Below, one piece after another: positions 1,705-48,329 of a stretch of 64,000 nt of DNA. The position numbers were made by a program, and so were the translations under genes. Position 1 is the stretch's first letter. Every line of letters begins with the position of its first letter. A model generated the notes under the pieces. It did not search any database and was not told the DNA's origin. It saw only the letters and a program-made list of their open reading frames with translations. Source of the stretch: an uncultured Chloroflexia bacterium. GTDB taxonomy: Bacteria; Chloroflexota; Limnocylindria; Limnocylindrales; CSP1-4. The stretch is taken from the NCBI GenBank assembly GCA_963781705.1, contig CAWAGP010000001.1:135406-199405 (forward strand). Reading direction: 5' to 3'.

Positions 1705-1729
1705 GCCGCCAGGGCTCAGGCGGGCGGCT
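1704..1729. terminator. Hairpin AGCCGCC-N12-GGCGGCT spanning the convergent stop codons of the PBP gene and glgX; possible bidirectional terminator
   Basis: A 7-bp perfect inverted repeat is seen directly. No U-tract follows, which is common in high-GC genomes. Confidence 0.35.
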
Positions 1730-3896
1730 CAGCCTCGCTGCCGGCGCTGATCATCAGCATCAGCGTGCGGCCGTCGAGCGGCAGTCTGGCGCCCGCGGAA
1801 TAGACCTCCAGCGACAGGTGCGGCGGCGAGTCGCTGCGCGTATCGAGCACCGTGTGCCATGTCGCGCCCCAGCGCTCTGATGGCAGCTGGAAGGTGACGG
1901 GCTCGGGCGCGGCGTTGAGCATCAGGTAGAAGTCGCGGTCGCTGATCGGCCGGCCGCGCTCGTCGACACCCAGGTCGGCGCCTGACAGGTACAGGCCCAG
2001 GGCGCGCGCCAGCGCCTCGTTCCAGTGTTCCTCGGACATCGGCTGGGCGTCCGGCTGGAACCAGGCGATGTCGGTTACCTGCGCGCCATGGATGTGGCGG
2101 CCGTGGAACCACCGCCGACGGCGGAAGACAGGATGGTCGCGGCGGAAGGCGATCAGGCCGCGCGTGTACTCGAGTAGCGCGTGGTCGGCGTGCTGCCAGT
2201 CGTACCAGCTCAGCTCGTTGTCCTGGCAATAGGCGTTGTTGTTGCCGTTCTGGGTGCGTCCGATCTCGTCGCCGCCCAGGATCATGGGCACGCCCTGGCT
2301 GAGCAGCAACGTGGCCAGGAAATTGCGCCGCTGCTGTGCTCGGTGGGCGTTGACCTGCGGGTCATCGGTCGGACCCTCGACGCCCAGGTTGTACGAGCGG
2401 TTGTCCTCGCTGCCGCCGATGTTGCCTTCTGGATTGGCTTCGTTGTGCTTGTGGTTGTAGCTGACCAGGTCGACCAGCGTGAAGCCGTCGTGGGCGGTGA
2501 CGAAGTTGATGCTCGCGTGCGGCGTGCGCGCGCTGCTCTCGTACAGGTCGGAACTGCCGGTCAGCCGGTAACCCATCTCGCCCAGCGTGCGCGGCTCGCC
2601 ACGCCAGAAGTCGCGCACCGCATCGCGGTACTTGCCGTTCCACTCGGACCACAACGGCGGAAAGTTGCCCACCTGGTAGCCGCCCTCGCCGATGTCCCAC
2701 GGTTCGGCGATCAGCTTTACGCGGTTGATTACCGGGTCCTGCTGGATGACCTCGAAGAACGACGACATGCGCTCGACCGCGTGCTCATCGCGCCCCAGGG
2801 TGACGGCGAGATCGAAGCGGAAGCCGTCGATGTGCATCTCCTGCACCCAATAGCGCAGGCTGTCCATGATCAGCTGGAGCACGAATGGGTGCGGCACGTT
2901 GAGGCTGTTGCCGGTGCCGGTGAAGTCGAGGTAGTAGCGCGGGTCGCTCGGCAGCAGCCGGTAATAGGCAGCGTTGTCGATGCCGCGAAAGCACAGCGTC
3001 GGGCCCAGGTGGGTGCCCTCGCCGCTGTGGTTGTAGACAACGTCCAGGATGACCTCGATGCCCGCCTGGTGCAGCGCGTGGACCATGCGCTTGAACTCGG
3101 TTACCTGCTGGCCGCGCTGGCCGGTGCTGCTGTAGTCATTGTGTGGCGCGAAGAAGCCGATCGTGTTGTAGCCCCAGTAGTTGCGCAGCCCGTTGCGCAC
3201 GAGGTTCGTGTCGTAGACGAACTGGTGGACGGGCAGCAACTCGACCGCGCTGACGCCCAGCTCATGCAGGTAGCGGATGGTCGCCGGATGACCCACACCG
3301 GCGTACGTACCGCGCAGTTCGGCGGGCACGTGCGGGTTGAGCATGGTCAGACCCTTGACATGCGTCTCGTAGATGACCGTCTTGTGCAGCGGCGTGCGCG
3401 GCGCCCGATCGTCGCCCCAATCGAATGCGCTGTCGACAACCACTGAGCGCGGGGCATACGAGGCGCTGTCGCGGTCGTTGCGCCGCCCCGGCCGCCCCCA
3501 GTAGTAGCTGAACAGTGCCTCATCCCAATCGACCGCGCCTTCCACGGCCAGCGCGTACGGGTCGAGCAGCAGCTTGGACGGCTGGCAGCGCTGGCCGTTC
3601 GCCGGCGACCACGGCCCGTGCACGCGGAAGCCGTAGCGCTGGCCGGGCTCGAGTTCAGGCACGAAGCCGTGGCGCACGAAACCGCTCGACTCGGGCAGAT
3701 CGACGCGGCGCTCACGGCCGTGCTCATCGAACAGGCACAGCTCGACGCGACTGGCGACTTCGGAGAAGAGCGCGAAGTTGACGCCGTGACGGTCGTAGGT
3801 GGCTCCCAGCGGATACGGCCGGCCGGGCCAGATAGTTGTTCTACGGCGCGATCGCGGCGTGCGCGATGAACGCGGCCTTTCGGTGATGGCGGTCAG
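1716..3896 (-). CDS. glgX: Glycogen debranching enzyme GlgX (GH13 isoamylase type)
   Basis: GH13 regions are present: DVVYNH, GFRFDLA, EPWD and FVTAHDGF. The N-terminal PYPLGATYD motif is typical of GlgX. The ORF-track start at 4163 reads through an 11-bp repeat (the artefactual RRGRG repeats), so the true start is placed near CTG/alternative codons around 3896, about 16 aa before WPG. The start is uncertain. Confidence 0.8.
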
Positions 3897-4080
3897 TGAG
3901 GGCTCCTTCCTTCGATAACGAAGCGGACTTGAGTCGATCCGGCCAGTACGAGCCACGTTCCCGATTCGGCCCAACAACACGCAAGGCTGACAGTTTCGCT
4001 GAAAGGCGGCTGAAACCGCGGCGCATGGCCGGCCGCGAGTCGGAGCGCTACAACGTCCAGGAAGGGCGGCGACTGCCGGT

Positions 4081-4150
4081 CCGCCTCGCCCGCGCCTCGC
4101 CCGCGCCTCGCCCGCGCCTCGCCCGCGCCTCGCCCGCGCCTCGCCCGCGC
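4081..4150. repeat. Perfect tandem repeat (CCTCGCCCGCG)x6 plus a partial unit, in the glgX/ligD divergent intergenic region
   Basis: Six identical 11-nt units are read directly at 4084-4149, flanked by a partial copy. Confidence 0.9.
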
Positions 4151-4338
4151 GAATCCGATCCACAGTCGGAAGTGGAACGCGTTTGTCCCGTTTTTGTGGG
4201 CCAGCCGGCTGCTTTGGCGCCGATTTCCGACTAAGACGCGTGAATCGGGGGCGGTTTGCGCAGCCAGACCTCGAATCCGGTCAAAGCTCCGACTGAGGCG
4301 CGGAATGCGCGGATCACTCGACACGTAACCTGAACGCG

Positions 4339-6954
4339 ATGTCGCTCGAAACGTACCGTCGCAAGCGCGATTTCACGCGCACTCCGGAGCCGAGCGGCGA
4401 CGGTGCGCGCCCGTCAGCGCCACCGGCACCGGGGCGGCGCTACGTCGTCCAGCGCCATCGTGCAACCCGGCTGCATTACGACTTCCGGCTCGAGATCGAC
4501 GGTGTGCTGATGAGCTGGGCGGTACCGAAAGGACCCTCGCTCAACCCCGCGGACAGGCGCATGGCGGTCCACGTCGAGGACCACCCCATCTCGTACTTCG
4601 ACTTTGAGGGCGTGATCCCCAAGGGCGAGTACGGCGGCGGCGACGTGATCATCTGGGACTGGGGCACGTTCGAGCCGGAAGAAACGGACGATCCGGGCGG
4701 GGCCGTCCGCGGCGGGGAGCTCAAGTTCCGCCTCGACGGCCAGAAGCTGCACGGTCGCTTCACGCTGGTCAAGATCCGCTCCGCCGATCCCGCCAAAGAT
4801 GATTGGTTGCTCATCCACAAGCGCGACGACGCGGCCGACGCGAACTGGGACATCGACGACTGGCCGCGCTCGGTGAAGACGGGCCGGACGAACGACGAGG
4901 TCGCCGCCGGTGCGGATGCCGTGTGGGACTCGCGTGCGCCGGCGGCGGAGGCGGAAATCGACCTGTCCGCCGCACGACAAGCCGGCCTGCCCGACTTCAT
5001 CGAGCCGATGAACGCGAGCGCGGTCGACAAGCCATTCAGCCACCCCGACTGGCTGTTCGAGCTCAAGCTCGACGGCTACCGGGTGGAGGCCGTGCTCACC
5101 GGCGGCGTCCTTCACCTTTGGACGCGCAACCGCCACGACGCGGCCCGCTACTTCCCTGACCTGGCGCGCGCAAAGCCGACCTGGATCAACGCGCGTAATG
5201 CCATCGTCGACGGCGAGGTGGTGGCGCTTGACGAAGAGGGCCGGCCGGCGTTCAGCCTACTGCAGGATCACGTCGGACCGGTGCTCGTGCGACCGGCCGC
5301 CAAGGCGCCGATCGTCTATTACGTCTTCGACCTGCTCTATCTCGATGGCCGCCTGCTGATCGACGTACCGCTCGAGCAGCGCAAACGCCTGCTGCGCAGC
5401 GTGCTGCACGAGCAGTCCATGGTGCGCTATGCCACGCACGTCGAGGGCGATGGTGAGGACTTCTACGCGGCGGTCAAGGAACGGGGCCTGGAGGGCATGG
5501 TGGCCAAGTTGCGTGCCAGCCGTTACGAGCCGGGACGCCGTTCGAAGGCGTGGCTGAAGATCAAGATCCGGCGCGAGCAGGAGGCGCTGGTGGTCGGCTA
5601 TGAACCGGGCCAGCGCTCGCGCGCCGACCTCGGGTCGCTCATCCTGGCCGTGTACGACGGCGCCGACCTGCGCTACGTGGGCGAGGTTGGCAGCGGTCTG
5701 ACCGATCGGCAGGTCAAGCAGCTCAAGAACGAGCTGGACGCGCATCGCGTCGAGCAACCGCCGGTCGTCAACCCACCGAAGATCAAAGGCGCGGTCTGGT
5801 CGGAACCGCGCCTCGTGGTACGTGTCGAGTTCAGCGAATGGACTCGGGACAACCTGCTGCGCCAGGCAGCGCTGAAGGGCGTCGACATCGGCAAGGACCC
5901 GCGCTCGGTGGTACGCGAACACGAGGCGGAAGCTTCGCCCGAACCACCGGCGGGCCCTGCGGCGGGACTCCGACGCCACCGCGCGTCACCCGCCGCCACG
6001 CAGGCCGCCCTGCCGCAGTCGGTGACCACCGACCAGCTTGCGGCCCTCGACGCCATGGGGAAGGACGGCAATTGGGAGGTCGGCGGTCAGTCGATCAACC
6101 TGAGCAACCTGGACAAGGTGCTCTTTCCGGAGCCCGGCTATACCAAGCGCGACCTGGTCCGCTACTACGTCACGATCGCGCCGGTCATGCTGCCCTACCT
6201 GAGTGGTCGCGCGCTCAACCTATGGCGCTGGCCGGACGGCATCACCGGCGGCCACTTCTGGCAGAAGCAGGTACCCGCCTGGGCACCGCAGTGGATCCGG
6301 CGCTGGGACTACCCGGAGGCCGGCACGAGCGAGTCGCATACCTATCTCGTGGCGGACCAGGTCGCCACGTTGGCCTGGCTGGCCAACCACGCCACGATCG
6401 ACGTGCATCCCTGGACATCGCGCGTCGACGCCTACCGCAATCCGACCTATGCCCTGATCGACATCGACCCCGGCGAGCGGACGACGTTTGCCGACGTGCT
6501 GACGCTGGCGCGGCTGTACCGCGCGGCGCTCGAGCATCTGGGTGTGCGCGGCTTCCCCAAGGTGACCGGCAAACGTGGTATCCAGGTGTGGATCCCGATC
6601 GTCGCGCGATACACCTTCGACGACACGCGCAACTGGGTCGAGGCGATTTCGCGGGCCGTCGGCCACGCCGTTCCGCAGCTGGTCAGCTGGGAGTGGGCGA
6701 AATCGGCGCGGCGCGGCCTGGCTCGCCTCGACTTCACCCAGAACGCCGTCAACAAGACGCTCGTCGCTCCGTACGCGGTGCGGCCGGTGCCCAACGCGGC
6801 GGTATCGGCGCCGATCACCTGGGACGAGCTGGACGACCCTGAACTTCGACCGGATCGGTGGGACATTCGCACCATCCTCGAGCGCGTCGCGGCGCGCGGC
6901 GACCTTTTCGCGGCCGTGCTCGAGTTGCAGCAGGAGCTGCCCGAGGTCGGCTGA
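4339..6954 (+). CDS. ligD: Multidomain ATP-dependent DNA ligase LigD (3'-phosphoesterase, ligase, polymerase/primase)
   Basis: The N-terminus has the PE-domain signature HYDFRLE. The adenylation motif I is KLDGYR (ELKLDGYRVEAV). The C-terminal 300 aa are LigD Pol-like. ATG at 4339. Confidence 0.9.
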   Translation: MSLETYRRKRDFTRTPEPSGDGARPSAPPAPGRRYVVQRHRATRLHYDFRLEIDGVLMSWAVPKGPSLNPADRRMAVHVEDHPISYFDFEGVIPKGEYGGGDVIIWDWGTFEPEETDDPGGAVRGGELKFRLDGQKLHGRFTLVKIRSADPAKDDWLLIHKRDDAADANWDIDDWPRSVKTGRTNDEVAAGADAVWDSRAPAAEAEIDLSAARQAGLPDFIEPMNASAVDKPFSHPDWLFELKLDGYRVEAVLTGGVLHLWTRNRHDAARYFPDLARAKPTWINARNAIVDGEVVALDEEGRPAFSLLQDHVGPVLVRPAAKAPIVYYVFDLLYLDGRLLIDVPLEQRKRLLRSVLHEQSMVRYATHVEGDGEDFYAAVKERGLEGMVAKLRASRYEPGRRSKAWLKIKIRREQEALVVGYEPGQRSRADLGSLILAVYDGADLRYVGEVGSGLTDRQVKQLKNELDAHRVEQPPVVNPPKIKGAVWSEPRLVVRVEFSEWTRDNLLRQAALKGVDIGKDPRSVVREHEAEASPEPPAGPAAGLRRHRASPAATQAALPQSVTTDQLAALDAMGKDGNWEVGGQSINLSNLDKVLFPEPGYTKRDLVRYYVTIAPVMLPYLSGRALNLWRWPDGITGGHFWQKQVPAWAPQWIRRWDYPEAGTSESHTYLVADQVATLAWLANHATIDVHPWTSRVDAYRNPTYALIDIDPGERTTFADVLTLARLYRAALEHLGVRGFPKVTGKRGIQVWIPIVARYTFDDTRNWVEAISRAVGHAVPQLVSWEWAKSARRGLARLDFTQNAVNKTLVAPYAVRPVPNAAVSAPITWDELDDPELRPDRWDIRTILERVAARGDLFAAVLELQQELPEVG

Positions 6955-6993: not shown

Positions 6994-8235
6994 TCAGACC
7001 TCCGCCGGTTCGGGCATGTCGCGCATCCTGATGACCGGGCTCCAGATGATCCACAGGACACCGGTCAGGGCGGCGAGAGTGACGACGAACAGGGTCTCGC
7101 GTACGCCGATCAGGCCACCCAGGGCGCCGCCCATCAAGGCACCGATCGGGCGGATGCCGTAGTTGACGAATCGGAACGCACCCATCGCCCGGCCGCGAAT
7201 CTTGTCCGGTATCCGCGCCTGCATGAAGGCGCCCACGTTGATGTCCAGGATCATCACGCCAAGACCCGCCAGGAACTCGGTGACGAACAGGATCGCCAGG
7301 ATGACGGGCAACGGTCCGGCGGCCAGTGGAATGAGGATCAGCGCCGCCGGGAACAGGACCAACCCGAGTGCGTACGCCGGGCCGAGGCCGATGCGCCGGC
7401 CGACGCGCCCGGCGATGAGTGCCCCAACCACGGCGCCAACGGCGCCCGCGCCCAGGGCCAGGCCGAGCAATCCCGGTTCGACGTTCAGGTACGTCGTCAC
7501 GTACAGGATGAACAGCGCCTGAAAGGCAAAGTTGAACAGGTTCACGGTGGCTACCGAGAGCAGGCCCGGCCGCATGATCGGGTCGCGGTAGATGAACGAC
7601 GCACCGGTCACGAGTTGGCGGACGAGGCTGTCCGTCTGCGGCTCGACCGGCGGCTCGGTCGCCTTGGTGCGCAACAGGAAGAGTGCTGAAGCGACAAACG
7701 AAAGCGCGTCGATCAGCATGACGTAGGCGCCGCCGAGCAGCTGGATCAGGATGCCACCGATCGACGGCCCGGCCACCTGAGCCAGCGACCGGCTGCCGCT
7801 GAGCAACGAGTTCGCCTGGACGTATTCGTCGCGCTGGGCGACGGCCACGAACAGCGTGTTCCAGGCGATGTCGAAGCCGACGGCCAGCGTGCCGGCCACG
7901 AACGTCACCAGGAACAACTGCTCCAGGCTGAGGATGCCCAGCACGAATGCCAGCGGGATGGTGGCGATGACCAGCGCGCGGACGAGGTCGATCGCAATCA
8001 TCAGCCGCCGCCGGTGATGCACACGATCGAGCCACACGCCTGCCGGCAAGGAGAAGAACAGGTGCGGCAACAGTCCGACCGCCGTCAGCAGGCCCATCTG
8101 GGCGGCTTCGGCGTGCAGCACAAGCACCGCAATGATCGGCACCGCCAGCAGCGTGACCTGATCGCCGATAACGGAGATGGTCTGGCCGATCCAGAAATTG
8201 CGGAAGGGCGCCTGCCGCAGCAGCGACGGGATCAT
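6994..8235 (-). CDS. MFS transporter (EntS/enterobactin-exporter-like family)
   Basis: Twelve hydrophobic segments. The N-terminus reads NFWIGQTISxxGD, typical of this MFS subfamily. Confidence 0.75.
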   Translation of the reverse strand: MIPSLLRQAPFRNFWIGQTISVIGDQVTLLAVPIIAVLVLHAEAAQMGLLTAVGLLPHLFFSLPAGVWLDRVHHRRRLMIAIDLVRALVIATIPLAFVLGILSLEQLFLVTFVAGTLAVGFDIAWNTLFVAVAQRDEYVQANSLLSGSRSLAQVAGPSIGGILIQLLGGAYVMLIDALSFVASALFLLRTKATEPPVEPQTDSLVRQLVTGASFIYRDPIMRPGLLSVATVNLFNFAFQALFILYVTTYLNVEPGLLGLALGAGAVGAVVGALIAGRVGRRIGLGPAYALGLVLFPAALILIPLAAGPLPVILAILFVTEFLAGLGVMILDINVGAFMQARIPDKIRGRAMGAFRFVNYGIRPIGALMGGALGGLIGVRETLFVVTLAALTGVLWIIWSPVIRMRDMPEPAEV

Positions 8236-8930
8236 CGCCGCCCCCTGTCAGCGACGAACTCGATGCGCTGCGCGAGGCTGAACCGCCACGGCCAATGCCA
8301 CTTCACGGCGTCGACGAGATCCATGCCCGAACCCAGGGCATGGGCAAGCGGATCGGGCACATGACGGTGGAAAGGCAGGCCGCCCGGCAGCAGGTCCCAG
8401 ATCAGGGCACGTCCGCCGGGGCGCAGGACGCGCGCGATCTCGGCCAGGCCGGCCTGCGGGTCGTCCCAGTGATGCATCGACATGGTGCTCACCACAACGT
8501 CGAACGATTGGTCCGCGAACGGCAGTGCGGCGACGTCGCCAACCTCGAAGCGCAGGCCGTCGGCAGCGCCTCCCTCGCACGCGGCGTTGGCGCGCGCCCG
8601 TTCGACCATGCTCGGGTCGAGGTCGAGCCCGGTCACCTCGAAGCCCCGGTCGCGCGCCAGGCGCACCGACAGATGGCCGGGGCCACAGCCCACCTCCAGC
8701 AGCCTGGCGCCCGGCGGGGCAGCCACGGCCACATCCGCGGCGATGCCCTTGAAGAGCGAGCCGAGCAGTAACCGGCTCAACGCGTCATACGACAGCGTGT
8801 CATCCATCACGACGCCGCCTGCCACGCTGCGGCCGGCCGCTCCGGCACGATGCCGAACGATCGCCACGGCCGCCGCAGTGGCGCCGGCGACAGCAAGCAA
8901 ACCCGCCACTCTGCGCGCTCGAACCACCAC
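8232..8930 (-). CDS. Class I SAM-dependent methyltransferase
   Basis: SAM motif LLEVGCGPG. The start is placed at GTG 8930, preceded by the SD AAGGGAGGG. The ORF-track start at 8984 would overlap the tRNA. There is a 4-nt stop/start overlap with the downstream MFS gene. Confidence 0.7.
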
Positions 8931-8958
8931 CCCTCCCTTGGTAGACTCCAATTGTCGC

Positions 8959-9033
8959 TGGCGAGTGGCCAAACGGTAAGGCACCTGACTCTGGATCAGG
9001 CAATTGAAGGTTCAATTCCTTCCTCGCCAGCCA
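8959..9033 (+). tRNA. tRNA-Gln, anticodon CUG
   Basis: Folded manually: acceptor TGGCGAG/CTCGCCA, discriminator G, encoded CCA. The 3-bp D-stem GCC/GGC is as in E. coli tRNA-Gln. The anticodon stem is CCTGA/TCAGG and the loop is CTCTGGA (U33, C34-U35-G36). The T arm is GAAGG-TTCAATT-CCTTC. Confidence 0.9.
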
Positions 9034-9071
9034 AATCTCCCGTCCAGTTGCAGCTTGGTTGGCCCGTACCC

Positions 9072-10745
9072 GTGACCACCGACTTCATCCGCGAGATCGT
9101 CGCCGCCGACATTCGCGCCGGCCGGCACACGACGATCGTGACGCGCTTCCCGCCCGAGCCGAACGGCTACCTGCACATTGGCCATGCCAAGTCCATCTGC
9201 CTGAACTTCGGCATCGCCGCCGAGTTCGGCGGACGCTGCCACCTGCGCTTCGACGACACGAACCCGGAGAAGGAGGAGCAGGAGTACATCGACGCGATCG
9301 AGCACGACCTGCGCTGGCTGGGCTTCGACTGGGGCGAGCACCTCTACCACGCGTCGGACTACTTCGAGCAGTTGTACGAGTGGGCGGTCGAGCTGGTCAA
9401 GGGCGGCAGGGCGTACGTCGACGACCTGTCGGCCGACGAGATGCGCGAGCACCGCGGCACCCTGACCGAACGCGGCCGGAACTCGCCGTGGCGCGACCGC
9501 CCGATCGCGGAGAACGTCGACCTCTTCGAGCGCATGCGCGCCGGCGAGTTTCCCAATGGCGCGCACGTCCTGCGCGCCAAGATCGACATGGCCTCACCGA
9601 ACATCAACCTGCGCGATCCGGTGCTCTACCGCATCGTCCACGCCGCCCATCCGCGTACCGGCGACGCGTGGCGCGTCTATCCAACCTACGACTTTGCACA
9701 CGGCCAGTCGGATGCCATCGAGGGCATCACCCACTCGCTGTGCACGCTCGAGTTCGAGGCGCACCGGCCGCTCTACGACTGGCTGATCGACAACCTGCCG
9801 GTGCCGTCGCGCCCGCGCCAGATCGAGTTCGCACGCCTTGCGCTAACCCACACGGTGCTGTCCAAGCGCTTCCTGCTGCGTCTCGTCAACGATGGCCACG
9901 TGCGCGGCTGGGACGACCCGCGCATGCCCACCATCTCCGGGATGCGCCGGCGCGGCTACCCCGCCGAGGGCATCCGCGACTTCGCCACCATGGTCGGCGT
10001 GGCCAAGGCGAACACGGTGATCGAGATCGGCCAGCTCGAGCATGCCGTGCGCAACGTCCTCAATCGCACAGCGCTGCGCCGCTTCGCCGTGCTCGACCCG
10101 CTCAAGGTGGTCGTCGAGAACTACCCCGCCGGGCAGGTCGAGACGCTCGAGGTGCCCAACAACCCCGAGGACTCGGCCGCCGGCGACCGACCGGTCGAGT
10201 TCTCACGCGAGCTGTGGATCGAGCGCGATGACTTCATGGAGGAACCGCCGCCGAAGTTCTTCCGCCTCGCTCCGGGGCGCGAGGTGCGCCTCCGTGCGGC
10301 TTACTTCATCACCTGCCAGTCGGTCGTCCACGACGCCGACGGAAAGATCGTCGAACTGCGCTGCACATACGATCCCGCGACGCGCGGCGGCGATGCGCCC
10401 GACGGACGGCGGCCCAAGGCAACTCTCCACTGGCTGTCCGCTGCGCACGCGATCCCGGCAGAGGTCCGGCTGTACGACCACCTGTTCAGCGAGCAGTTCC
10501 CGGGCGGCGGCGGCGACCTGATGGCCGATCTGAATCCGGCCTCAGAGACGGTGCTCGCCGGCGCGCTCGTCGAGGCCAGCCTGGCTGACGCGCCGGCGGG
10601 CACGACCGTCCAGTTCGAGCGTCTGGGATACTTCGCGTTCGACCCCGATTCCGCACCCGGCCGCCCAGTCTTCAACCGCGCGCTCACGCTCAAGGACACC
10701 TGGGCCAAGGTGCAGGCACAGAGCGGAGGATCTGGCAATGGGTGA
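9072..10745 (+). CDS. glnS: Glutaminyl-tRNA synthetase
   Basis: The sequence is strongly collinear with GlnRS: [18 protein letters not shown] (the HIGH motif), [22 protein letters not shown] and VLSKR (the KMSKS-type motif). The start is either GTG 9072 or GTG 9042, both after the tRNA. Confidence 0.9.
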
Positions 10746-11184
10746 GCTACGCAGTACCGCTCAGCGCAAGGCCGACGTGCTGGCCATGCTCGAACAGCAC
10801 GGCCACGCCTGGCTGGCGACTGCCGAGGGTTCGGTTCCGCACGTGATCGTGACCCAGGCGGTGTGGGACGGTGAGTCGATCGTGGTGACCACTCGGGAGA
10901 CGAGCCGGACGGGCCGCAACCTGGACGAAAGCCAGGCGGGCCGGCTGGCGTTCGGCAACGCGGAGGACGCGATCCTGGTTGACGTCGAACTCACCAAGTC
11001 ACTGCCCGCGGCCGATGCCGGCGCAACGGGCGCGACGTTCGAGAAGGCGGCCGGATGGAACCCGGCTGAAGAAGGGGCGGATTGGCGCTATTTCGTGCTC
11101 CATCCGACCCGCATACAGGCCTACCGTGGCTACGGCGAGATCGACGGCCGTGACGTTATGAGGAACGGGCGCTGGCTGGCCTGA
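10738..11184 (+). CDS. Pyridoxamine 5'-phosphate oxidase-like FMN/F420-binding family protein
   Basis: Size and pattern (GHAWLATAE...) fit the PPOX-like split-barrel family. It overlaps glnS by 8 nt, which suggests an operon. Confidence 0.6.
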
Positions 11185-11216
11185 CAGGCAGCCGGGTTTA
11201 GACTTCGATGCGCCAC

Positions 11217-11291
11217 TGGCGCGTGGCTCAACGGTAGAGCACCTGACTCTGGATCAGGGGGTTGAAGGTTCGAATCCTTCCGCGCCAGCCA
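11217..11291 (+). tRNA. tRNA-Gln, anticodon CUG (second, diverged copy)
   Basis: Acceptor TGGCGCG/CGCGCCA, discriminator G, CCA. D-stem GCT/AGC. The anticodon arm is identical to copy 1 (CCTGA-CTCTGGA-TCAGG). T arm GAAGG-TTCGAAT-CCTTC. The compensatory differences from copy 1 show the two are not a recent duplication. Confidence 0.9.
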
Positions 11292-35446: not shown

Positions 35447-36967
35447 TCACTGGTTGCGATTTGCGATGCTACTCGCCAACTCGACAAGCGTCCTGACCGG
35501 GGCTCCCTGTGGCCCCTTGGGCGAGAAGGACCGGTCCTCCTCGTACCACGCCGTGCTGGCAATATCGAGGTGCGCCCATTCCGTCTGCGGTTCAACGGCC
35601 GCGTCTATGAACGCGGCGCCCAGGCTGGCACCTCCCAGCCCACCGCCGCCGGTGTTGCGCAGGTCGGCTATGTCGCTTTTCATGTCATCGCGAAATTCAT
35701 CCGACAGGGGCATCGGCCACATCCGCTCACCCGCGCGCTGGCCGGCGCTGCGAATCTCATCGACGAATCCGGCGGGCCGGCCGAACAGGCCCGTGTAGTG
35801 GCGGCCGAGCGCGACGCGGATGGCGCCGGTCAGCGTGGCCACGTCGACGACTCGCGACGCGCCTTCGCGCTGGGCATAGGTCACACCGTCGAGCAGGACC
35901 AGCCGGCCCTCAGCATCGGTGTTGATGACCTCGACCGTCTTGCCGCTCATGCTGGTGAACACGTCGCCCGGCTTGGTGGCGCGCCCGCCGGGCAGGTTCT
36001 CGGTCGCCGGAGCGACGCAGATCACGTTGATCGGCAGGCCCAGCCGGGCGATCGCACCGATGCTCCCAATAACTGCCGCCGCGCCGGCCATGTCGTGCTT
36101 CATCAGGTGCATGTCCTTCGGATCCTTGAGCGAGATGCCGCCCGAGTCGAAGGTGATGCCCTTGCCCACCAGGCCGAGGTCGTACCCATCGCCACTGCGT
36201 CCGCGGTAGCGCAGGACGATGAATTTCGCCGGTTCAGCGCTGCCGTGCGCAACCGACAGGTAGCTGCCCATGCCGAGCCGCGCAGCCGCATCCTCTTCGA
36301 TGACATCGAACTGCAGGTGATGCGCTGCGGCCAGTTCGCCCGCAGCCGCGGCGAGGTGCGTGGGCGTCATCAGGTTGGCCGGCTCATTTGATCGAGCGCG
36401 GGCCCAGTTGACGGCCTCGCCGACGGCTGCGCCGCGCTCAATGGCCAGCGCCGCGGCATCCCCCGCAGCACCGGCGGTCGGGTCGGCCAGCAGCACGACC
36501 TCGTCAACCGGCGGCAGCCGCTCGGCGTCGCTGCCGGTCTGGTGCGTATGCGGATCCCACAGTGCATACACGACACCCTCGACAGCGGCCTGGACGGCCG
36601 TTTCCGGTCCCACCTGGGCGGTTTCCAGGCAGACGCCGACACGGCGCGCCTTGGAACCCCACAGCGCCTTGACGCCGGCGCTGGCCACGCGCCAGGCCCG
36701 CTCGGCGTCGTATTCGCTCCGCTTGCCGGCACCGACCACGACCAGGCGCAGGGCGCTGGCGCCGTCAGTAGCAGCCGGTTGAAGATGGGTGCGTGTGCTG
36801 AACAGGCTGCCGGCGCCGCCATCAGCGGCGAGCCACTCGGCGAGTTTGCGGATCTCGCCGCCTGCTCCACGGGCGGCGTGGACCGGCTCGTCGCCGTCCT
36901 TGAAGACCGGGACGACGACAGCGTCGAGACTCGAATCGGCGGCTGAAGAAGCGATGTTGAACTGCAT
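35447..36967 (-). CDS. pepA: Leucyl aminopeptidase (M17)
   Basis: M17 signature NTDAEGRL. 506 aa. Confidence 0.85.
   Translation of the reverse strand: MQFNIASSAADSSLDAVVVPVFKDGDEPVHAARGAGGEIRKLAEWLAADGGAGSLFSTRTHLQPAATDGASALRLVVVGAGKRSEYDAERAWRVASAGVKALWGSKARRVGVCLETAQVGPETAVQAAVEGVVYALWDPHTHQTGSDAERLPPVDEVVLLADPTAGAAGDAAALAIERGAAVGEAVNWARARSNEPANLMTPTHLAAAAGELAAAHHLQFDVIEEDAAARLGMGSYLSVAHGSAEPAKFIVLRYRGRSGDGYDLGLVGKGITFDSGGISLKDPKDMHLMKHDMAGAAAVIGSIGAIARLGLPINVICVAPATENLPGGRATKPGDVFTSMSGKTVEVINTDAEGRLVLLDGVTYAQREGASRVVDVATLTGAIRVALGRHYTGLFGRPAGFVDEIRSAGQRAGERMWPMPLSDEFRDDMKSDIADLRNTGGGGLGGASLGAAFIDAAVEPQTEWAHLDIASTAWYEEDRSFSPKGPQGAPVRTLVELASSIANRNQ

Positions 36968-38342: not shown

Positions 38343-38346
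<4 letters not shown>
37585..38346 (+). CDS. SCO1664-family protein (PI3/4-kinase-like fold, TIGR03843-like)
   Basis: ATG at 37585, 5 nt after the DUF3090 stop. A conserved partner gene. Confidence 0.7.
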
Positions 38347-41741
<3,395 letters not shown>

Positions 41742-41751
41742 GAACGGCTCC

Positions 41752-43698
41752 TCATCGGGCGCTTCCGCGCGCCGCCGGGCGACGCAGCCAGAAGACGTGC
41801 GCGGCGCGCACGCCGGGATCGAGCGCGACCCAATTCTGGGCGCCCTGCCAGAGGTACGTCGCCCGATCGAGCAGATCGACCGCCTCAAAGGGCTCGTCCG
41901 GTGGCAGGCCCAGACCGGCCAGGTCGAGCGTGAGCGTGCCCGATTGAACGGCCAGCGGATCGAAATTGACGACTGTCAGGATGATGTCGCGCCGGTCGGC
42001 AGTGTTCTTGGTATAGGCGAGCAACTGGTCGTTGTCGACCGCCTGAAACCACAGGCGCTCGTTGGTCTGCAGCGCCGGGTGATCGCGCCGCGCGGCGTTG
42101 AGGCGCTCGATCAGCGGCGCGAGCGAGTCAGGCGCGTCGAGGTCCCAGGTGCGCTGCTGGTACTTCTCCGAGTCGAGGTATTCCTCCGAACCCGGCTCGC
42201 GCGGAGTGTGCTCGAGCAGCTCGAAGGCCGGCCCGTAGATGCCGTAGTCGGCCGACAACGTGGCTGCCAGCACGAGTCGTGCTGCGAACGCGGGACGCGT
42301 CCCCACCTGCAGGTCGGCATGCAGGATGTCCGGAGTGTTCGGCCAGAAGTTGGGTCGGAAGAACTCGCTGACCGGCGGCGAGGTGAGCTCGGTCAGGTAG
42401 GCGGCCAACTCGGCCGGGCTGTTGCGCCAGGTGAAGTACGTGTAGCTCTGCGAGAAGCCGAGCTTGGCCAGCCGATACATCACCTTGGGCCGCGTGAAGG
42501 CCTCGGCCAGGAAGAGCACCTCGGGATGGTCCGCCTTGATATCGGCGATGCACCACTCCCAGAAGCCGAATGCCTTGGTGTGCGGGTTGTCGACGCGAAA
42601 GATGGTCACGCCCTGCTCGATCCAGAAGCGGAAGACGTCGTTCAGCGCCCCCCACAGTCCGCGCCAGTCCCGGCTCTCGAAGTCGAACGGGTAGATGTCC
42701 TGGTATTTCTTGGGCGGATTCTCGGAGTACTGGATGGTGCCGTCGGGGCGCGCGCGGAACCAGTCGGGATGTTCGGTCACCCAGGGATGGTCGGGTGAGG
42801 CCTGGAAGGCGATGTCCAGCGCGACCGAGATACCGCGCCGGGCGGCCTCCGCGACCAGCGATCGGAAATCCGCGAGCGTGCCCAGTTCCGGATGGACCGC
42901 GGTGTGGCCGCCCTCCGGTCCGCCGATCGCCCACGCCACGCCGGGATCGGCCGCGGACTGCGCCGGTTCGTTGTTGGGGCCTTTGCGGAACTGCCGGCCG
43001 ATGGGATGGATGGGTGGCAGGTACAGCACGTCGAAGCCCAGCCGCTGCACGTAATCAAGCCGGGCGACGACATCGGCGAACGTGCCGTGCCGGCGTGGGT
43101 CGGGCGACGCCGAGCGCGGGAACAGCTCGTACCAACTCGAGAAGCGCGCGCGCTCGGGGTCGACGATGACGTCGAACGTGGCCGAGCTGGCTGCCTGGCT
43201 GCGATCCGGATAGCGCTCGATCAGCTCGACCAGCGGCCCCGTGACGATCGACTGCCCGCCGCGCAGACGACCCGCCAGTTCGCGCAGTCGCCGAGCATGA
43301 TCATCGTCAACCTCAGCGGCCCGCTCCCCCGCTGCCTGCACCAGCTGCGCGCCGATCAACAGGTCGATGCGCACGTCCTGGCCCGCGTCCAGGCGCTTGG
43401 CCAGGTCGTGCTGCCAGGTTCGAAAGTGGTCGACCCATGCGCTGACTGAATACTGGTATCGGCCCAGGTCGGCAAGCGCGAAGGTGCCCCGCCAGCGATC
43501 GTTGCCCAGCGCGATCATCTCGACTTCGCGCCACTCCCCGCTCGTCCCGCCATGGCACCAGCGCAGCACGACCCGGATTTCGTCGTGGCCGTCGCCAAAC
43601 GCGTCGGCTTCCACCGCGAACGTGTCGCCGACGATCCGCTTGACGGCAAAACGACCGCCGTCGAGCTGAGGCGTAACGGCCTCGATCACCGTGCGCAC
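41752..43698 (-). CDS. glgE: Alpha-1,4-glucan:maltose-1-phosphate maltosyltransferase
   Basis: 648 aa. GlgE N-terminal domains followed by a GH13 core. It sits directly upstream of treS-mak. Confidence 0.85.
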
Positions 43699-43809: not shown

Positions 43810-46800
43810 TCACTCTCCATCCTGCGATTGTCGCCCGGGTGCACGAGTCGGCGCAGGGTGTTTCAGCGCATTGGGCTTGGCTGCGGCCGGCTTGGGCGCA
43901 CCCGGCTTGATCGCGGCCTTGGGCGGTCTGGTCGACGCCCACTTGGGCGGGTCGGCGATCGCGCGCTCCAATCGTGCAAGGCGATAGCCGGAGCGCTCGG
44001 CGGCGCGCGCCAGTCCGGCCGCATCGGGCAACTCGAGCCACTCGACCGCCTCTTCGAAGCGCTCGCGGTTGAACCACGTCACGCCTTCGTGCTCGTTGAC
44101 ACCGATCGCGCGGCGGAAGTGCTCGTCCTGCAGCAGCTCCTGCGGCCGGCGGCCGTTGGCGGCGCTCGACGCGCGCTTGGCCGCGGGGCGGTCGAGCAGC
44201 AGTGCCACCAGGTCCGCGTTGGGCCACACCTTGTCGATGCGCCACTCGTAGATCCATTTGCCGCGTGCCAGCTCGGGCTGATGCGCGCCGACGAGCTCTT
44301 CGACGTCGCGCGCCAGCGTGCGCTGGGTCGCCGCTTCGCCGGACTCGTCGTCGTGCGCAACCGTCTCGATGCCGAGCAGCGCAGCGGCCGCCGCCAGCAC
44401 GGCGCCGGCGTCTTCGCCGCGCAATGCATCGTGCAGCGGCTCGAGTTCGAGGTCGCGCAGCGCTTCGGCGATCGAGGGGACTCCCCGGCCATCGAGTTGC
44501 GCGGCGAGCTGTGCGTAGCGGCCGTCCGTGTCGCGCACGTCGCGCAACTCGACGAACGCGTGGCACGAATAGGCGTGCAGCTCCAGGTACATGCCCTGCT
44601 CGGACAGCTCCTTGTGCGAGTGGAGGTGCTCCAGGCCCGACCGCGCATCACGCATGATCAGGAAGTCGGCCGGGTCGTTCGACAAACCCAGGCCGTGCCC
44701 GAGCGACGCGCCGGTGACCGCCGCGACCCGGATCCAGCCGGCAGTTTCCGCGTACTTGTTGTGGTAGACGACCAGCGATCGCTCGCCGTCGCGCCGGTTC
44801 GAGAACGCGAAGACGTCCTCGTTGACCGAACCGCCCGCGTAGAAGTCGTATAGCGCGAAGTCGGCCACCTCGGCGAAAAGCGCCCGACGGTGGAGCAGCG
44901 GGAAGATCTCGCGCTCGTGGCGGGCAATCAGGTCCGCGTCGGGCGTCTCGTCGAGATAAGCGCGCCGGTACTCCATGCCGTAGCGCTCGGCGTAGCCCTC
45001 CACCTGGCCGTGGCCGAACATCGGCAGCCCGGGCATGGTCGCCAGCACGGTGGCCACGCCGAAATACTTGTCGCCCTTGCCGAACTGGTCGACTGCCGTG
45101 CGCTCGTCGGGGTTGTTCATGAAGTTGACGTAGCGCTTGAGGATCTGGGAGTCGAACTCGAGCGTGTTCTTGATGACCAGCCGGTACTCGGCGTTCTTCT
45201 CGTCGCGCATCATGTTCATGAACGCGCTGTTGTAGACGCGGTGCATGCCCAGCGTGCGCACGAAATAGCCTTCCATCAGCCAGAAGGCCTCGGCGAGCAG
45301 CAGCGTCTCGGGCGCCTCGGCAGCGACGCGATCGACCACCTCGCGCCAGAACTCGACCGGCATGGCGCGCTCGAAGTCGGCCTTCTTCATGGCGTACTCG
45401 GCACGCGACGGGATCGCCCCGCCGCTGCCCGGCTCGGGATACCAGAGCCGCTCGACGTGTCGTTTGGCGAGCGTCATCGCCGCGTCGAAGCGGATGATCG
45501 GGAACTGGCGCGCGACGTGCAGGATGGTCTGGATGACCGCCTCGCGCACCTCCGCCTTGAGGTAGTCGAGCTGCGCGGTGTCATTCCACGGCATGGAGGT
45601 GCCGTCGTTGCCGTGATAGATGAAGCGCTCCTGGCCGCTCCAGCGATCGACGCGCTTGAACGTCACCGCGGCGTCGGTGTTGTCGTAGTAGTGGTCCTCG
45701 ATGTAGACGCCGACGCGCTGGTCGGACGAGAGATTCGGCCCGTTGTACGTGTACGCCGGATAGGGTGGATCAGGGCGCGACATGAACCAGTCGGGATGCT
45801 CCATCACCCAGCGCGAGTCGATGCCCATGTGGTTGGGCACCATGTCGCTCGCCAGGCGGACACCACGTGACCAGGCCCGGTCGCGCAGGTTGCGATATGC
45901 CTCGTCGCCACCGAGGTCGTCGGCGATCTGGTAGTCCATCAGCGAGTAGGCCGACGCGACCGCCTCGGGATTGCCGCGCAACTGCTTGATCTCGCGCGAC
46001 GCGCGGCTGCGCTCCCACAGGCCGATCAGCCACAGCCCGGTGAAGCCGCGCGCGCCGATGGCATCCAGTTCCTCGTCGGGTATCTGGTCCAGCCGCCAGA
46101 TCGGCCGGCCATACTCACGCGACAGCTGATCGAGCCATACGTAGGTGCTCTTGGCCAGCAGCACGACGCGCGGCATCCAGTCGAGATCGCGGCTGAAGCG
46201 CTCGTCCTCCGGCTCGCCGGCCGCCGCGGCGAAGCCATGCAGCGCGGCCGTGTCGCCGGCGCCGGCATCGGCTGCCCCGCCGTGCGTCGCGTGGAAGCGC
46301 ATCCACAATGCGCGCTCCTCCTCCGAGAGCACGTCGAGGCCGATCACCAGCCGGTCGCCGAACTTCTCGGCCACGAAGCCCCAGCGTTCGGTCATCCAGC
46401 GCAACTGGCTGGCCAGTGAGGCCGGGGCCTCGAGTGCAGGGCGCCGCAGCAGGCTGAGCAGATCGTCGTTTTCGGGCCCGAAAGTCGGCTGCGTCTTGAA
46501 GAACGCCGCCAGGCCACGCAGCGCCGCGACATAGGCACTGCCGTCCTCGAGCGGCGTGTCGTCGAACAACTCCCCGTACGGCGCGAAAGCCGGGTTCATG
46601 TTGGCCAGCCAGAGCAGCATCAGTTCCTCGAGCGCGATCTCGCGATTCGACCGGCCGTCCGTGTCGCCGGCGAGGTAATCCGCGGCCGACTGCTCGCCGC
46701 GGTAGGCGACGAGCGGCGGGAAATGCTCCACGAACGTCGTCAGCGTCGCCTCCAGGACGGCTTCGCCCAGCCGCCGGCGGAGGTCATCGAGCGCCGCTGC

Positions 46801-47079
46801 CATCGCGTCCGGCTTGCGCTCGCGTCGGTACAGCTCAACCACGAAGTGCAGCACCTCATCGACGAGGCCCATCGCGTTGATGTCCCCGGCGCGCACAGCG
46901 GCGCTCGGGTCGGCGACCAGGTCGCGCTGCTCATTCATCAGCTGCGCGAAGCGGCGCGCGGCCGCGTAGTCGACGAAGACGACGTTGCCGCTGGTGCTGA
47001 ACAGCGCCTCATCGAAGCGGTAACGCTCGCGCGCCGCGCGCGACACGTGGAACTCGAAGGTCAGCGGACGAGAATTCAT
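43810..47079 (-). CDS. Large GH13 alpha-amylase-family protein (1089 aa) with an N-terminal domain of about 400 aa of unknown function
   Basis: ATG at 47079. The GH13 region I-like motif is DMVPNHMG. It is unlike GlgB/TreY/TreZ in length and domain order. Confidence 0.7.
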   Translation of the reverse strand: MNSRPLTFEFHVSRAARERYRFDEALFSTSGNVVFVDYAAARRFAQLMNEQRDLVADPSAAVRAGDINAMGLVDEVLHFVVELYRRERKPDAMAAALDDLRRRLGEAVLEATLTTFVEHFPPLVAYRGEQSAADYLAGDTDGRSNREIALEELMLLWLANMNPAFAPYGELFDDTPLEDGSAYVAALRGLAAFFKTQPTFGPENDDLLSLLRRPALEAPASLASQLRWMTERWGFVAEKFGDRLVIGLDVLSEEERALWMRFHATHGGAADAGAGDTAALHGFAAAAGEPEDERFSRDLDWMPRVVLLAKSTYVWLDQLSREYGRPIWRLDQIPDEELDAIGARGFTGLWLIGLWERSRASREIKQLRGNPEAVASAYSLMDYQIADDLGGDEAYRNLRDRAWSRGVRLASDMVPNHMGIDSRWVMEHPDWFMSRPDPPYPAYTYNGPNLSSDQRVGVYIEDHYYDNTDAAVTFKRVDRWSGQERFIYHGNDGTSMPWNDTAQLDYLKAEVREAVIQTILHVARQFPIIRFDAAMTLAKRHVERLWYPEPGSGGAIPSRAEYAMKKADFERAMPVEFWREVVDRVAAEAPETLLLAEAFWLMEGYFVRTLGMHRVYNSAFMNMMRDEKNAEYRLVIKNTLEFDSQILKRYVNFMNNPDERTAVDQFGKGDKYFGVATVLATMPGLPMFGHGQVEGYAERYGMEYRRAYLDETPDADLIARHEREIFPLLHRRALFAEVADFALYDFYAGGSVNEDVFAFSNRRDGERSLVVYHNKYAETAGWIRVAAVTGASLGHGLGLSNDPADFLIMRDARSGLEHLHSHKELSEQGMYLELHAYSCHAFVELRDVRDTDGRYAQLAAQLDGRGVPSIAEALRDLELEPLHDALRGEDAGAVLAAAAALLGIETVAHDDESGEAATQRTLARDVEELVGAHQPELARGKWIYEWRIDKVWPNADLVALLLDRPAAKRASSAANGRRPQELLQDEHFRRAIGVNEHEGVTWFNRERFEEAVEWLELPDAAGLARAAERSGYRLARLERAIADPPKWASTRPPKAAIKPGAPKPAAAKPNALKHPAPTRAPGRQSQDGE

Positions 47080-47150
47080 TGCGACCAATGCTGACCCACT
47101 CGGCGCGATCGCGCCAGTCCCCGGCTTGGCGGCATCGCTAATCTGGCCCA

Positions 47151-48329
47151 ATGACCAACGCGCTATTGCGCTTGCCCTCGCTGGTGCGCCGCATCGCACT
47201 GGCTGCCGGCTCGCTGGCCATCCTCGTACCGGCGATCGCTGCGCCGGCGGCCGCAGCTTCGCTGGACGTGTCGCTCGTCCAAAGCGGCTTCGTCGACCCG
47301 GTCATGGTCACCAACGCCGGCGACGACCGGCTGTTCGTGGTGCAGCAGACCGGCCAGATCGAGATCGTCGGCGGGGGTACTTTCCTCGACATCTCGGACA
47401 AGGTTGCGTGTTGCGGCGAGCAGGGACTGCTCAGCGTCGCCTTCCACCCCGACTACGCGAGCAACGGGCTCTTCTACGTCTATTACACGCGCGCGTCGGA
47501 CGGAGCGGCCGTCATCGCCGAATACCAGCGCTCTGCCGCGGATCCGGATGTTGCCGACCCCAACAGCGAGCGCATCCTGCTCAGCTTCGCCGAGCCCTAC
47601 GCCAACCACAATGGGGGCTGGATGGGCTTCAAGGGCCCCTACCTGTACATCTCGACCGGCGACGGGGGCAGTGGCGGCGATCCCCAGAACCATGCCCAGG
47701 ACGTCACCAGTTACCTGGGCAAAATCCTGCGCATCAACCCGCTCGATCCCGACGGCGCCGGCCGGAAGCGCTACAGCGTTCCGCGCAGCAACCCGTTCGT
47801 CGGGCGGCATGGCCTCAACGCGATCTGGTCATATGGGCTGCGCAACCCGTGGCGCTGCTCGTTCGACTACACGACCGGGCTGCTGTGGTGCGGTGACGTG
47901 GGCCAGAACGCGTACGAGGAGATCGATCGCGTCAAGACCAAGCGCAGCTTCAACTTCGGTTGGCGGCTGATCGAGGGCCGCCACTACTACAACGACCCCG
48001 GCCAGACCCAGGGCGACCTGTGTACGGGCGGCTGTCACAAGCTGCCGGTGATCGAATACGCCCACAGTGACTTCGGTGGCAACAACTGCGCGGTGACCGG
48101 CGGCTACGTCTCGCGTCGGCCGGGAGCGGCGTTGAACGGCGACTACGTGTTCGGCGACTACTGCTCGGGCAACGTGTGGGTCATTCCCGCCAGCTTCAAG
48201 AGAGCCGACTCACTGCCCATGCCGTTCACCACGTCGTTCACCATCAGCGCCTTCGGCGAAGGCGGTGACGGCCGGCTGTACGTGGTCGACTACAACGGCG
48301 GGGCGATCTACCAGCTGACCGACAGCTGA
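47151..48329 (+). CDS. Secreted PQQ-dependent sugar dehydrogenase (soluble glucose/sorbosone dehydrogenase-like beta-propeller)
   Basis: Signal peptide. An HPDYASNGLFYVYY-type motif. 392 aa. Confidence 0.7.
   Translation: MTNALLRLPSLVRRIALAAGSLAILVPAIAAPAAAASLDVSLVQSGFVDPVMVTNAGDDRLFVVQQTGQIEIVGGGTFLDISDKVACCGEQGLLSVAFHPDYASNGLFYVYYTRASDGAAVIAEYQRSAADPDVADPNSERILLSFAEPYANHNGGWMGFKGPYLYISTGDGGSGGDPQNHAQDVTSYLGKILRINPLDPDGAGRKRYSVPRSNPFVGRHGLNAIWSYGLRNPWRCSFDYTTGLLWCGDVGQNAYEEIDRVKTKRSFNFGWRLIEGRHYYNDPGQTQGDLCTGGCHKLPVIEYAHSDFGGNNCAVTGGYVSRRPGAALNGDYVFGDYCSGNVWVIPASFKRADSLPMPFTTSFTISAFGEGGDGRLYVVDYNGGAIYQLTDS

Follow-up and report, generated by a model that had tools for sequence, protein, structure and literature searches.

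The thrU-tyrU-glyT-thrT-tufB operon of Escherichia coli is a mixed tRNA-mRNA operon transcribed as one processed precursor, in which a tRNA gene lies directly 5' of a translation-related gene with neither promoter nor terminator between them. In pylS-pylT, an orthogonal pair by which the genetic code is extended, a synthetase gene adjoins its own tRNA gene, an association seen repeatedly across taxa. Glutaminyl-tRNA synthetase (GlnRS) of E. coli is encoded by glnS, a gene that has all four tRNA-Gln genes of that genome nearby, in the metT-leuW-glnUW-metU-glnVX operon. Here, we analyzed a glnS gene bracketed by two tRNA-Gln(CUG) genes, named tRNA1 (upstream) and tRNA2 (downstream), in a 64-kb stretch of the metagenomic contig CAWAGP010000001.1. 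The whole of this stretch is referred to below as the window.

The locus resembles each of these three systems, and differs from each of them in a distinct way. While in E. coli glnS and the tRNA operon are ~9 kb apart, on opposite strands and with six genes in between, the gaps in the window were 38 nucleotides (nt) from tRNA1 to glnS, and 32 nt from the last open reading frame (ORF) of the bracketed segment, encoding a putative split-barrel protein, to tRNA2. Compared to the thrU-tyrU-glyT-thrT-tufB operon, the protein is here the synthetase of the same tRNA, a second and diverged copy of that tRNA gene follows, and co-transcription is proposed from the gene layout. In contrast to pylS-pylT, both partners are standard housekeeping components. 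A literature search returned no description of a linkage between glnS and tRNA-Gln genes, nor of the co-transfer of an aminoacyl-tRNA synthetase with its cognate tRNA.

The observation of two tRNA-Gln(CUG) genes bracketing a canonical glnS was confirmed, and the arrangement is inherited within soil Limnocylindria, a lineage for which it is typical. The locus is likely to represent a cluster of soil Limnocylindria in which glnS sits within a small tRNA-Gln(CUG) array, is passed on by inheritance, and forms part of a mixed tRNA-mRNA transcription unit. The components are ordinary, and the mildly novel aspect is the recurrent, CUG-specific linkage between glnS and tRNA-Gln, found both within the lineage and across phyla. 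All components being standard, the glnS locus by itself changes little.

The glnS locus in soil Limnocylindria

Analysis with ARAGORN detected two tRNA genes in the whole 64-kb window, both of them tRNA-Gln(CUG) (Table 1). Scores against the Rfam tRNA model were 66.8 bits for tRNA1 and 71.0 bits for tRNA2 (threshold: 29 bits), the cloverleaf was the minimum-free-energy fold of both genes, and CCA was encoded in both. The direct repeat was limited to the tRNA body (76 nt, 86% identity), with 11 out of 75 positions differing between the two copies. The existence of a second, diverged copy with compensatory stem changes, as proposed in the original prediction, was corroborated by the comparison of both sequences: A-U at pair 6:67 of tRNA1 is replaced by C-G in tRNA2, and C-G at pair 12:23 by U-A, with compensation in both cases. 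At position 13:22, an A/A mismatch in tRNA1 (resulting in a D stem of 3 bp) corresponded to a C-G pair in tRNA2 (D stem of 4 bp). The other differences were located in the variable loop (positions 44-46) and in the T loop (positions 57 and 59). Based on the sequence of the D arm, tRNA1 was assigned to class 'GCCA' and tRNA2 to class 'GCTC'. They represent two old versions of the tRNA, each conserved separately, with a D stem of 3 bp in class GCCA and of 4 bp in classes GCTC and GCCT.

The GlnRS identity elements U1-A72, G2-C71, G3-C70, G10 and G73 were all present in both tRNA1 and tRNA2. The acceptor-stem elements and G10 are absolutely conserved in GlnRS-containing genomes (PMC3927822); the list of tRNA-Gln identity elements was also drawn from PMC2777447. 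The anticodon loop of both copies (C32, G37 and A38) is not of the E. coli type (U32, A37 and U38). It differs from the tRNA-Gln loop of gamma- and beta-proteobacteria, which has U32-U38/A37, and carries the C32-A38/G37 combination of the functional system of Thermus thermophilus (PMC3927822), so that an E. coli-type anticodon loop is not required in a tRNA-Gln recognized by GlnRS.

Among 25 distinct tRNA sequences from the lineage, 96.2% of the cells were paired and five pairs showed compensatory change, with a covariation score that was reached by none of 500 shuffles. Since pairing and covariation are preserved across these sequences, both classes evolve as functional tRNAs. All the tRNA-Gln genes in the lineage sample had the anticodon CUG (154 out of 154, four E. 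coli tRNA-Gln genes excluded). The class of tRNA1 was shared with the upstream copies of two relatives (L083 and L085) and with more than 100 metagenome contigs, while all 75 positions of tRNA2 were the same in the downstream copies from L088, L089 and L094.

The presence of a canonical glnS directly 3' of a tRNA-Gln(CUG) gene, the other structural claim of the original prediction, was supported by ARAGORN and Rfam for the tRNA, and by TIGR00440 and Pfam for the synthetase. The deduced protein matched TIGR00440 with 708 bits (cut-off 425.8), residues 23-546 aligning to profile positions 2-524 of 524, and the Pfam families PF00749, PF03950 and PF20974, corresponding to the catalytic domain and to two beta-barrel anticodon-binding domains, were detected above the gathering threshold. 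Class I motifs were identified at residue 35 (HIGH) and at residues 262-266 (VLSKR); the E. coli GlnRS counterpart of the latter is VMSKR. As judged by these profiles and motifs, the ORF between the two tRNA genes is a canonical class I glutaminyl-tRNA synthetase, similar to the bacterial enzymes from E. coli and Pseudomonas aeruginosa (TIGR00440) in its full-length match, three-domain architecture and HIGH and VLSKR motifs. Among solved structures, the nearest were 5BNZ from P. aeruginosa with 762 bits and the E. coli enzyme with 701 bits; the structure from Deinococcus radiodurans (2HZ7) scored 516 bits. The ORF as listed (8850-10745, 631 amino acids (aa)) overlaps tRNA1. The true start of glnS is most likely the GTG at position 9072, because the N-terminus predicted from it, VTTDFIREI, matches VSADFIREI of L164, one of the closest relatives recovered (GlnRS 86% identity).

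The highest-scoring NCBIfam model for this protein was NF011291 ('GlnRS/YqeY domain fusion protein', 857 bits), which outscored the plain glnS model. The locus is thus similar to the Deinococcus-type GlnRS/YqeY fusion (NF011291, 2HZ7) in its top NCBIfam model and in the NCBI name of its close homologues, but it differs in that there is no C-terminal YqeY domain: of the 769 profile positions, the match covered 12-562, and residue 557 is the last of the protein. Moreover, the next ORF encodes a predicted split-barrel protein and not YqeY. As NF011291 outscores the glnS model even without a YqeY domain, the 'fusion' names given by NCBI to many homologues of ~560 aa from metagenome-assembled genomes (MAGs) are misleading, and so is the 'GlnRS/YqeY fusion' name for the family.

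The surroundings of glnS had previously been read as actinobacterial, a view that the homologues did not bear out. The closest GlnRS homologues (82-86% identity) with taxon names were Candidatus Limnocylindrales, Chloroflexi or Chloroflexota. The split-barrel ORF had two taxon-labelled matches, from Candidatus Limnocylindrales and Candidatus Dormiibacterota, and those of PepA, encoded elsewhere in the window, were Limnocylindrales, Limnocylindria and Chloroflexota, with the exception of one weak match to Candidatus Caenarcaniphilales; some unassigned soil-metagenome records were also among the PepA matches. No Actinobacteria were found among the taxon-labelled matches of these three proteins. 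The GC content along the window was flat, at ~0.68 (range 0.66-0.69), and values of 68-68.6% are reported for soil Limnocylindrales families (PMC13212565). On sequence grounds, the window is assigned to Limnocylindria (Chloroflexota) and not to Actinobacteria, which corrects the taxonomic misreading of the locus.

The arrangement was searched for in relatives of the window. In the seven relatives fetched via GlnRS (L001 and L081-L086), a tRNA-Gln(CUG) gene was located 3' of glnS in all cases, and two of them (L083 and L085) had tRNA-Gln(CUG) on both sides of the gene. The upstream GlgX-LigD genes of the window were also present in L085, and the downstream major facilitator superfamily (MFS) gene was shared with L094 (89% identity). 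In addition, metagenome contigs were scanned by exact pattern for the D-arm class of tRNA1 (GCCA). From the 120 contigs returned, 29 carried glnS beside a GCCA-class tRNA, including 14 complete tRNA-glnS-tRNA sandwiches. The most frequent order in these metagenome contigs was GCCA-glnS-GCCT (seven contigs), followed by GCTC-glnS-GCCA (four contigs), with one contig each for GCCA-glnS-GCTC (the order also found in the window and in L083), GCCA-glnS-GCCC, glnS-GCTC-GCCA and GCCA-glnS-GCTC-GCCA. Taking into account the window, L083 and L085, complete sandwiches were found in at least 17 contigs. The copies directly flanking glnS belonged to different D-arm classes in every sandwich, a count that is biased by a search pattern demanding one GCCA copy.

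The recurrence of the tRNA-glnS-tRNA synteny across the lineage, an outcome that the original prediction had itself set against its idea of horizontal acquisition, speaks against a recent acquisition of glnS at this site. A lineage-wide cluster of a synthetase gene with its cognate tRNA, present in several gene orders, provides a natural case for studying co-expression and rearrangement.

Table 1. Location of the glnS cluster, its predicted promoters and other genes of the window mentioned in the text.
Feature	Position	Strand	Basis
Extended -10-like box TGGTAGACT, predicted promoter, ends 11 nt before tRNA1	8939-8947	+	Direct reading
tRNA-Gln(CUG) copy 1 (tRNA1)	8959-9033	+	ARAGORN, Rfam, cloverleaf fold
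tRNA1-glnS spacer, 38 nt	9034-9071	+	Direct reading
glnS, 557 aa, GTG start	9072-10745	+	TIGR00440, Pfam
Predicted FMN-binding split-barrel ('PPOX-like'/'PNPOx-like') ORF, 148 aa	10738-11184	+	Predicted structure, Foldseek
-10-like hexamer TAGACT, predicted promoter, ends 12 nt before tRNA2	11199-11204	+	Direct reading
tRNA-Gln(CUG) copy 2 (tRNA2)	11217-11291	+	ARAGORN, Rfam, cloverleaf fold
GlgX-type isoamylase	1716-4163	-	
LigD, 871 aa	4339-6954	+	
Methyltransferase, longest ORF	8232-8984	-	
GreA/GreB-domain ORF, 389 aa	16299-17468	+	
Pat-like ORF, 923 aa	24097-26868	-	
PepA	35447-36967		
TreS-Mak-like fusion and large amylase-family protein	38343-41888, 43810-47199	-, -	

Transcription of the tRNA and synthetase genes

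Candidate promoter elements were found by direct reading 5' of both tRNA genes (Table 1). The hexamer preceding tRNA2 also occurred 5' of its downstream orthologues in L088, L089, L094 and L082-L085. In the case of the upstream tRNA, a TAnnnT hexamer ending 9-14 nt before the gene was observed in 23 out of 24 related contigs, in at least eight sequence versions (flanks read by eye). A strict scan for sigma-70 promoters and intrinsic terminators between positions 8200 and 11700 gave no full -35/-10 site and no terminator, and the promoter call rests, for this reason, on the conserved TAnnnT hexamer. The 38-nt spacer between tRNA1 and glnS was devoid of TAnnnT hexamers, terminators and Shine-Dalgarno runs, and showed no significant RNA structure (z = +0.74).

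In the proposed mechanism, transcription would begin at the extended -10 box 5' of tRNA1, and the transcript would run through tRNA1, glnS and the overlapping split-barrel ORF as a mixed tRNA-mRNA unit. RNase P and 3' processing enzymes would then free tRNA1, leaving the glnS mRNA, while transcription of tRNA2 would start at the -10-like box preceding it, with read-through as a possible second source. GlnRS and its main substrate would in this way be made together. Glutamine codons in 28 genes of the window were 407 CAG vs. 52 CAA (89% CAG), and joint expression makes sense because, at this codon usage, GlnRS would have tRNA-Gln(CUG) as its main substrate. Joint expression of synthetase and cognate tRNA is the best-supported reading of the locus, and the co-regulated synthetase-tRNA unit that had been put forward in the original prediction fits both the geometry of the genes and their conservation.

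Several observations weigh against this interpretation. It is from spacing alone that we infer co-transcription and processing. A GCCA-class tRNA away from glnS was carried by 16 contigs whose flanks extended at least 2 kb to either side of it. Moreover, many relatives had no upstream tRNA, and their glnS was preceded by a longer leader and a GGAG Shine-Dalgarno sequence of its own, so that a tRNA-driven promoter is not essential to the lineage. The T loop of tRNA1 (UUCAAUU) was not found in any other sampled copy, which may reflect a relaxed constraint. Finally, the order of the copies varied between relatives; the linkage between glnS and tRNA-Gln is loose, and does not constitute a fixed operon.

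A conserved leader of ~80 nt, with no equivalent in the window, was found between the upstream tRNA-Gln and glnS in L100, L103, L104, L165 and L199. Within this leader, the sequence GUCUCC can pair with the Shine-Dalgarno region of glnS (GGAGGC), a pairing that would sequester the ribosome-binding site. The fold of the leader alignment contained 21 pairs with no compensatory changes, and no structure is claimed for it.

History of glnS and the two tRNA versions

In addition to co-regulation, an old acquisition of glnS at a tRNA-Gln locus had been considered in the original prediction, and an old event is compatible with the GlnRS phylogeny. A neighbour-joining tree was built with 88 sequences (549 columns, 100 bootstraps, E. 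coli as outgroup), picked by similarity to the query and with taxon labels taken from MAG records. The nearest sequences were the lineage relatives with 82-86% identity mentioned above, and the Limnocylindria clade had 100% support. This clade grouped, also with 100% support, with three Actinomycetota-labelled MAGs (L002-L004), and both together adjoined Alphaproteobacteria (support of 55%, or 89% when the group is drawn slightly wider), while other Chloroflexota (Anaerolineae, Caldilineaceae and Dehalococcoidia, among others) were placed elsewhere. This deep placement is compatible with an old transfer between phyla, in which a Limnocylindria ancestor would have gained glnS from another phylum, the gene being set at a resident tRNA-Gln(CUG) locus and inherited vertically thereafter. 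Transfer of GlnRS between bacterial phyla has been inferred before, and the enzyme is rare in the two phyla concerned, having been found in one out of seven Chloroflexi and one out of 17 Actinobacteria genomes, always alongside gatCAB (PMC3927822). In the window, no GatA, GatB, GatC or GluRS was detected among the 28 proteins searched with Pfam (nine of them also with NCBIfam), a result that covers the 64-kb window and not the genome. The sister Actinomycetota locus L004 also favors an old transfer: its glnS directly follows a tRNA-Gln/tRNA-Glu pair in which the tRNA-Gln has an unrelated sequence, suggesting that a linkage of glnS to resident tRNAs arose repeatedly. However, the tree is distance-based, its sampling is biased by similarity and its deep nodes are weak (45-55%); moreover, the flat GC content leaves no compositional trace of a transfer. 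An ancient gain from another phylum, which is compatible with the inherited cluster as the explanation of the present locus, is therefore regarded as a tentative possibility.

The linkage between glnS and tRNA-Gln was not restricted to Limnocylindria. Among the 80 species-level genomes sampled by the GlnRS search, six had a tRNA-Gln(CUG) gene within ~300 nt of glnS. Apart from L001, which belongs to the same lineage as the window, these were L004 (Actinomycetota; tRNA-Gln, tRNA-Glu and glnS in this order), L029 (a different Chloroflexota lineage, with tRNA-Gln divergent from glnS), L050 (Desulfobacteraceae), L060 (Anaerolineaceae, with two upstream tRNA-Gln(CUG) copies) and L073 (Anaerolineaceae). 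From the 22 tRNA genes within 6 kb of glnS in these loci, ten were tRNA-Gln, all of them with anticodon CUG. By chance, ~0.02 adjacencies within 300 nt would be expected (a rough estimate based on typical tRNA gene counts and genome sizes). With such neighbours in six of the 80 genomes and in all close relatives examined, a chance adjacency of glnS and tRNA-Gln(CUG) is excluded. Overall, at least four separate GlnRS lineages had a tRNA-Gln gene no more than 300 nt away from glnS, and its anticodon was CUG every time.

The tRNA-Gln genes beside glnS in other phyla were unrelated in sequence to the Limnocylindria type, which argues for a repeated juxtaposition with resident tRNAs rather than for a travelling module of glnS and tRNA. 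If upheld in a systematic survey, a CUG-only linkage would bear on how a horizontally spreading GlnRS is integrated into a transamidation host. A wider proposal, that spreading glnS genes are retained as a general rule beside the tRNA they charge, and/or that two functionally distinct tRNA-Gln(CUG) versions are tied to glnS (for GlnRS vs. GluRS/GatCAB, or with a regulatory function), is considered unlikely.

With regard to the provenance of the tRNA genes, the D stem of E. coli tRNA-Gln (GCCA/AGGC) is the same as that of tRNA1. The possibility that tRNA1 is a 'proteobacterial type' that arrived together with glnS was dropped, as the match to E. coli is limited to the D stem and the tRNA-Gln of the sister Actinomycetota is unrelated. 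Searches of a plasmid collection with each of the two tRNAs gave weak generic matches (75-88% identity), not clearly tRNA-Gln, and no taxonomic signal. Another tRNA gene, tRNA-Cys(GCA), was found in divergent orientation 5' of glnS in two Bacteroidota genomes, at a distance of ~630 nt in L078 and ~170 nt in L080.

In another reading, the two tRNA versions would not be interchangeable: the version with a 3-bp D stem, as in E. coli tRNA-Gln, would be the substrate of GlnRS, and the one with a 4-bp, tRNA-Glu-like D stem would be used by a non-discriminating GluRS together with GatCAB, or have a role outside translation. Eight of the 11 differences between tRNA1 and tRNA2 are located in the tertiary core (12:23, 13:22, 44-46 and 59), and both classes have been retained by relatives despite a divergence of their GlnRS to ~77% identity. 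The length of the D stem was proposed to discriminate between GluRS1 and GluRS2 for tRNA-Gln in Acidithiobacillus ferrooxidans, according to a report cited in PMC2777447, although the D stem was found to be no major determinant in Helicobacter pylori (PMC2777447). The fact that the two copies directly flanking glnS were never of the same class would also favor a division of roles, yet this count carries the bias of the search pattern noted above. Furthermore, both classes possess the complete set of identity elements (acceptor stem, G10 and G73), and in many relatives the 4-bp class is the sole copy beside glnS and is thus presumably charged by GlnRS. A functional partition between the two versions is, in view of these points, rather improbable.

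The short spacer of the locus could also be seen in the light of autoregulation, with tRNA1 in the role of a cis-regulatory operator: by attaching to the tRNA portion of a transcript not yet processed, GlnRS would block translation of glnS, in analogy to ThrRS and the tRNA-like leader of thrS. A 38-nt spacer is very short and lacks a Shine-Dalgarno sequence, and the spacers of the nearest relatives are similar (39 nt in L164 and ~40 nt, counted from the flank, in L085). Nevertheless, in other relatives the spacer measures 70-160 nt and contains a normal GGAG Shine-Dalgarno sequence, or the upstream tRNA is missing altogether, and no conserved structure joins the tRNA to the start codon, which makes such an operator very improbable. 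Lastly, a recently integrated genomic island bounded by a duplicated tRNA target site, as the direct tRNA repeats bracketing a 2.2-kb segment might suggest, is hardly credible and, as a recent event, excluded, given that both repeats are full tRNA genes differing at 11 positions and not a gene plus a 3' fragment, that no integrase or other mobility gene was detected between or beside the tRNAs in Pfam and NCBIfam scans, that the GC content is flat (0.66-0.69), and that the same arrangement occurs in relatives.

The split-barrel ORF and other genes of the window

The ATG of the ORF that follows glnS overlaps the glnS stop codon (ATGGGTGA). The match of its product to Pfam PF01243 (PNPOx_N) reached 25.7 bits, below the gathering score of 28.1, while precomputed Pfam matches were present for most of its homologues. 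The AlphaFold model had a predicted local distance difference test score (pLDDT) of 93.2 and a predicted template modeling score (pTM) of 0.87, and the best Foldseek match was 2IAB, a flavin mononucleotide (FMN)-binding split-barrel protein from Streptomyces avermitilis (template modeling (TM) score 0.92, 36% identity, E = 8e-16), with F420 reductases and further PNPOx-like proteins ranking next. The product is thus predicted to have the FMN-binding split-barrel fold, and the label 'PPOX-like' given to it originally is correct at the level of the fold. The order glnS, split-barrel ORF and tRNA was also found in L088-L094; the ORF is a passenger limited to one sub-lineage.

Other ORFs, without Pfam matches, were found inserted after glnS in two relatives (L086, positions 7818-9236, 472 aa; L088, positions 3047-4624, 525 aa), in the stretch separating glnS from the downstream tRNA-Gln or from the split-barrel ORF. 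The interval between glnS and the tRNA appears to be an insertion hotspot.

On the other side of the cluster, a methyltransferase gene is divergent from tRNA1. Its longest ORF overlaps tRNA1 by 26 nt, but its true start is probably a GTG near positions 8925-8930, just ahead of a hydrophobic N-terminal segment. With this start, the gap between the methyltransferase gene and tRNA1 would be ~30 nt, including the -10 box of tRNA1.

Further upstream, a full-length LigD combines phosphoesterase, ATP-dependent ligase and primase-polymerase domains in a single ORF, in a region that was called as two genes in L085, and is preceded by the gene of a GlgX-type isoamylase. A fusion of an alpha-amylase catalytic domain with a maltokinase N-terminal cap (TreS-Mak-like) and a large amylase-family protein are encoded further downstream in the window. 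Together, the GlgX, TreS-Mak-like and amylase genes resemble the GlgE alpha-glucan pathway, and this set was probably the source of the earlier actinobacterial impression.

Downstream of the cluster, GreA/GreB domains were assigned to residues 242-388 of a 389-aa protein, whose N-terminal ~240 residues had no Pfam match; a GreA gene was also found 3' of glnS in L085. Finally, a 923-aa protein contained coenzyme A (CoA)-binding, succinyl-CoA-ligase-like and ATP-grasp domains, similar to an ADP-forming acyl-CoA synthetase, together with a C-terminal GNAT acetyltransferase domain, which is the architecture of a Pat-like protein acetyltransferase.

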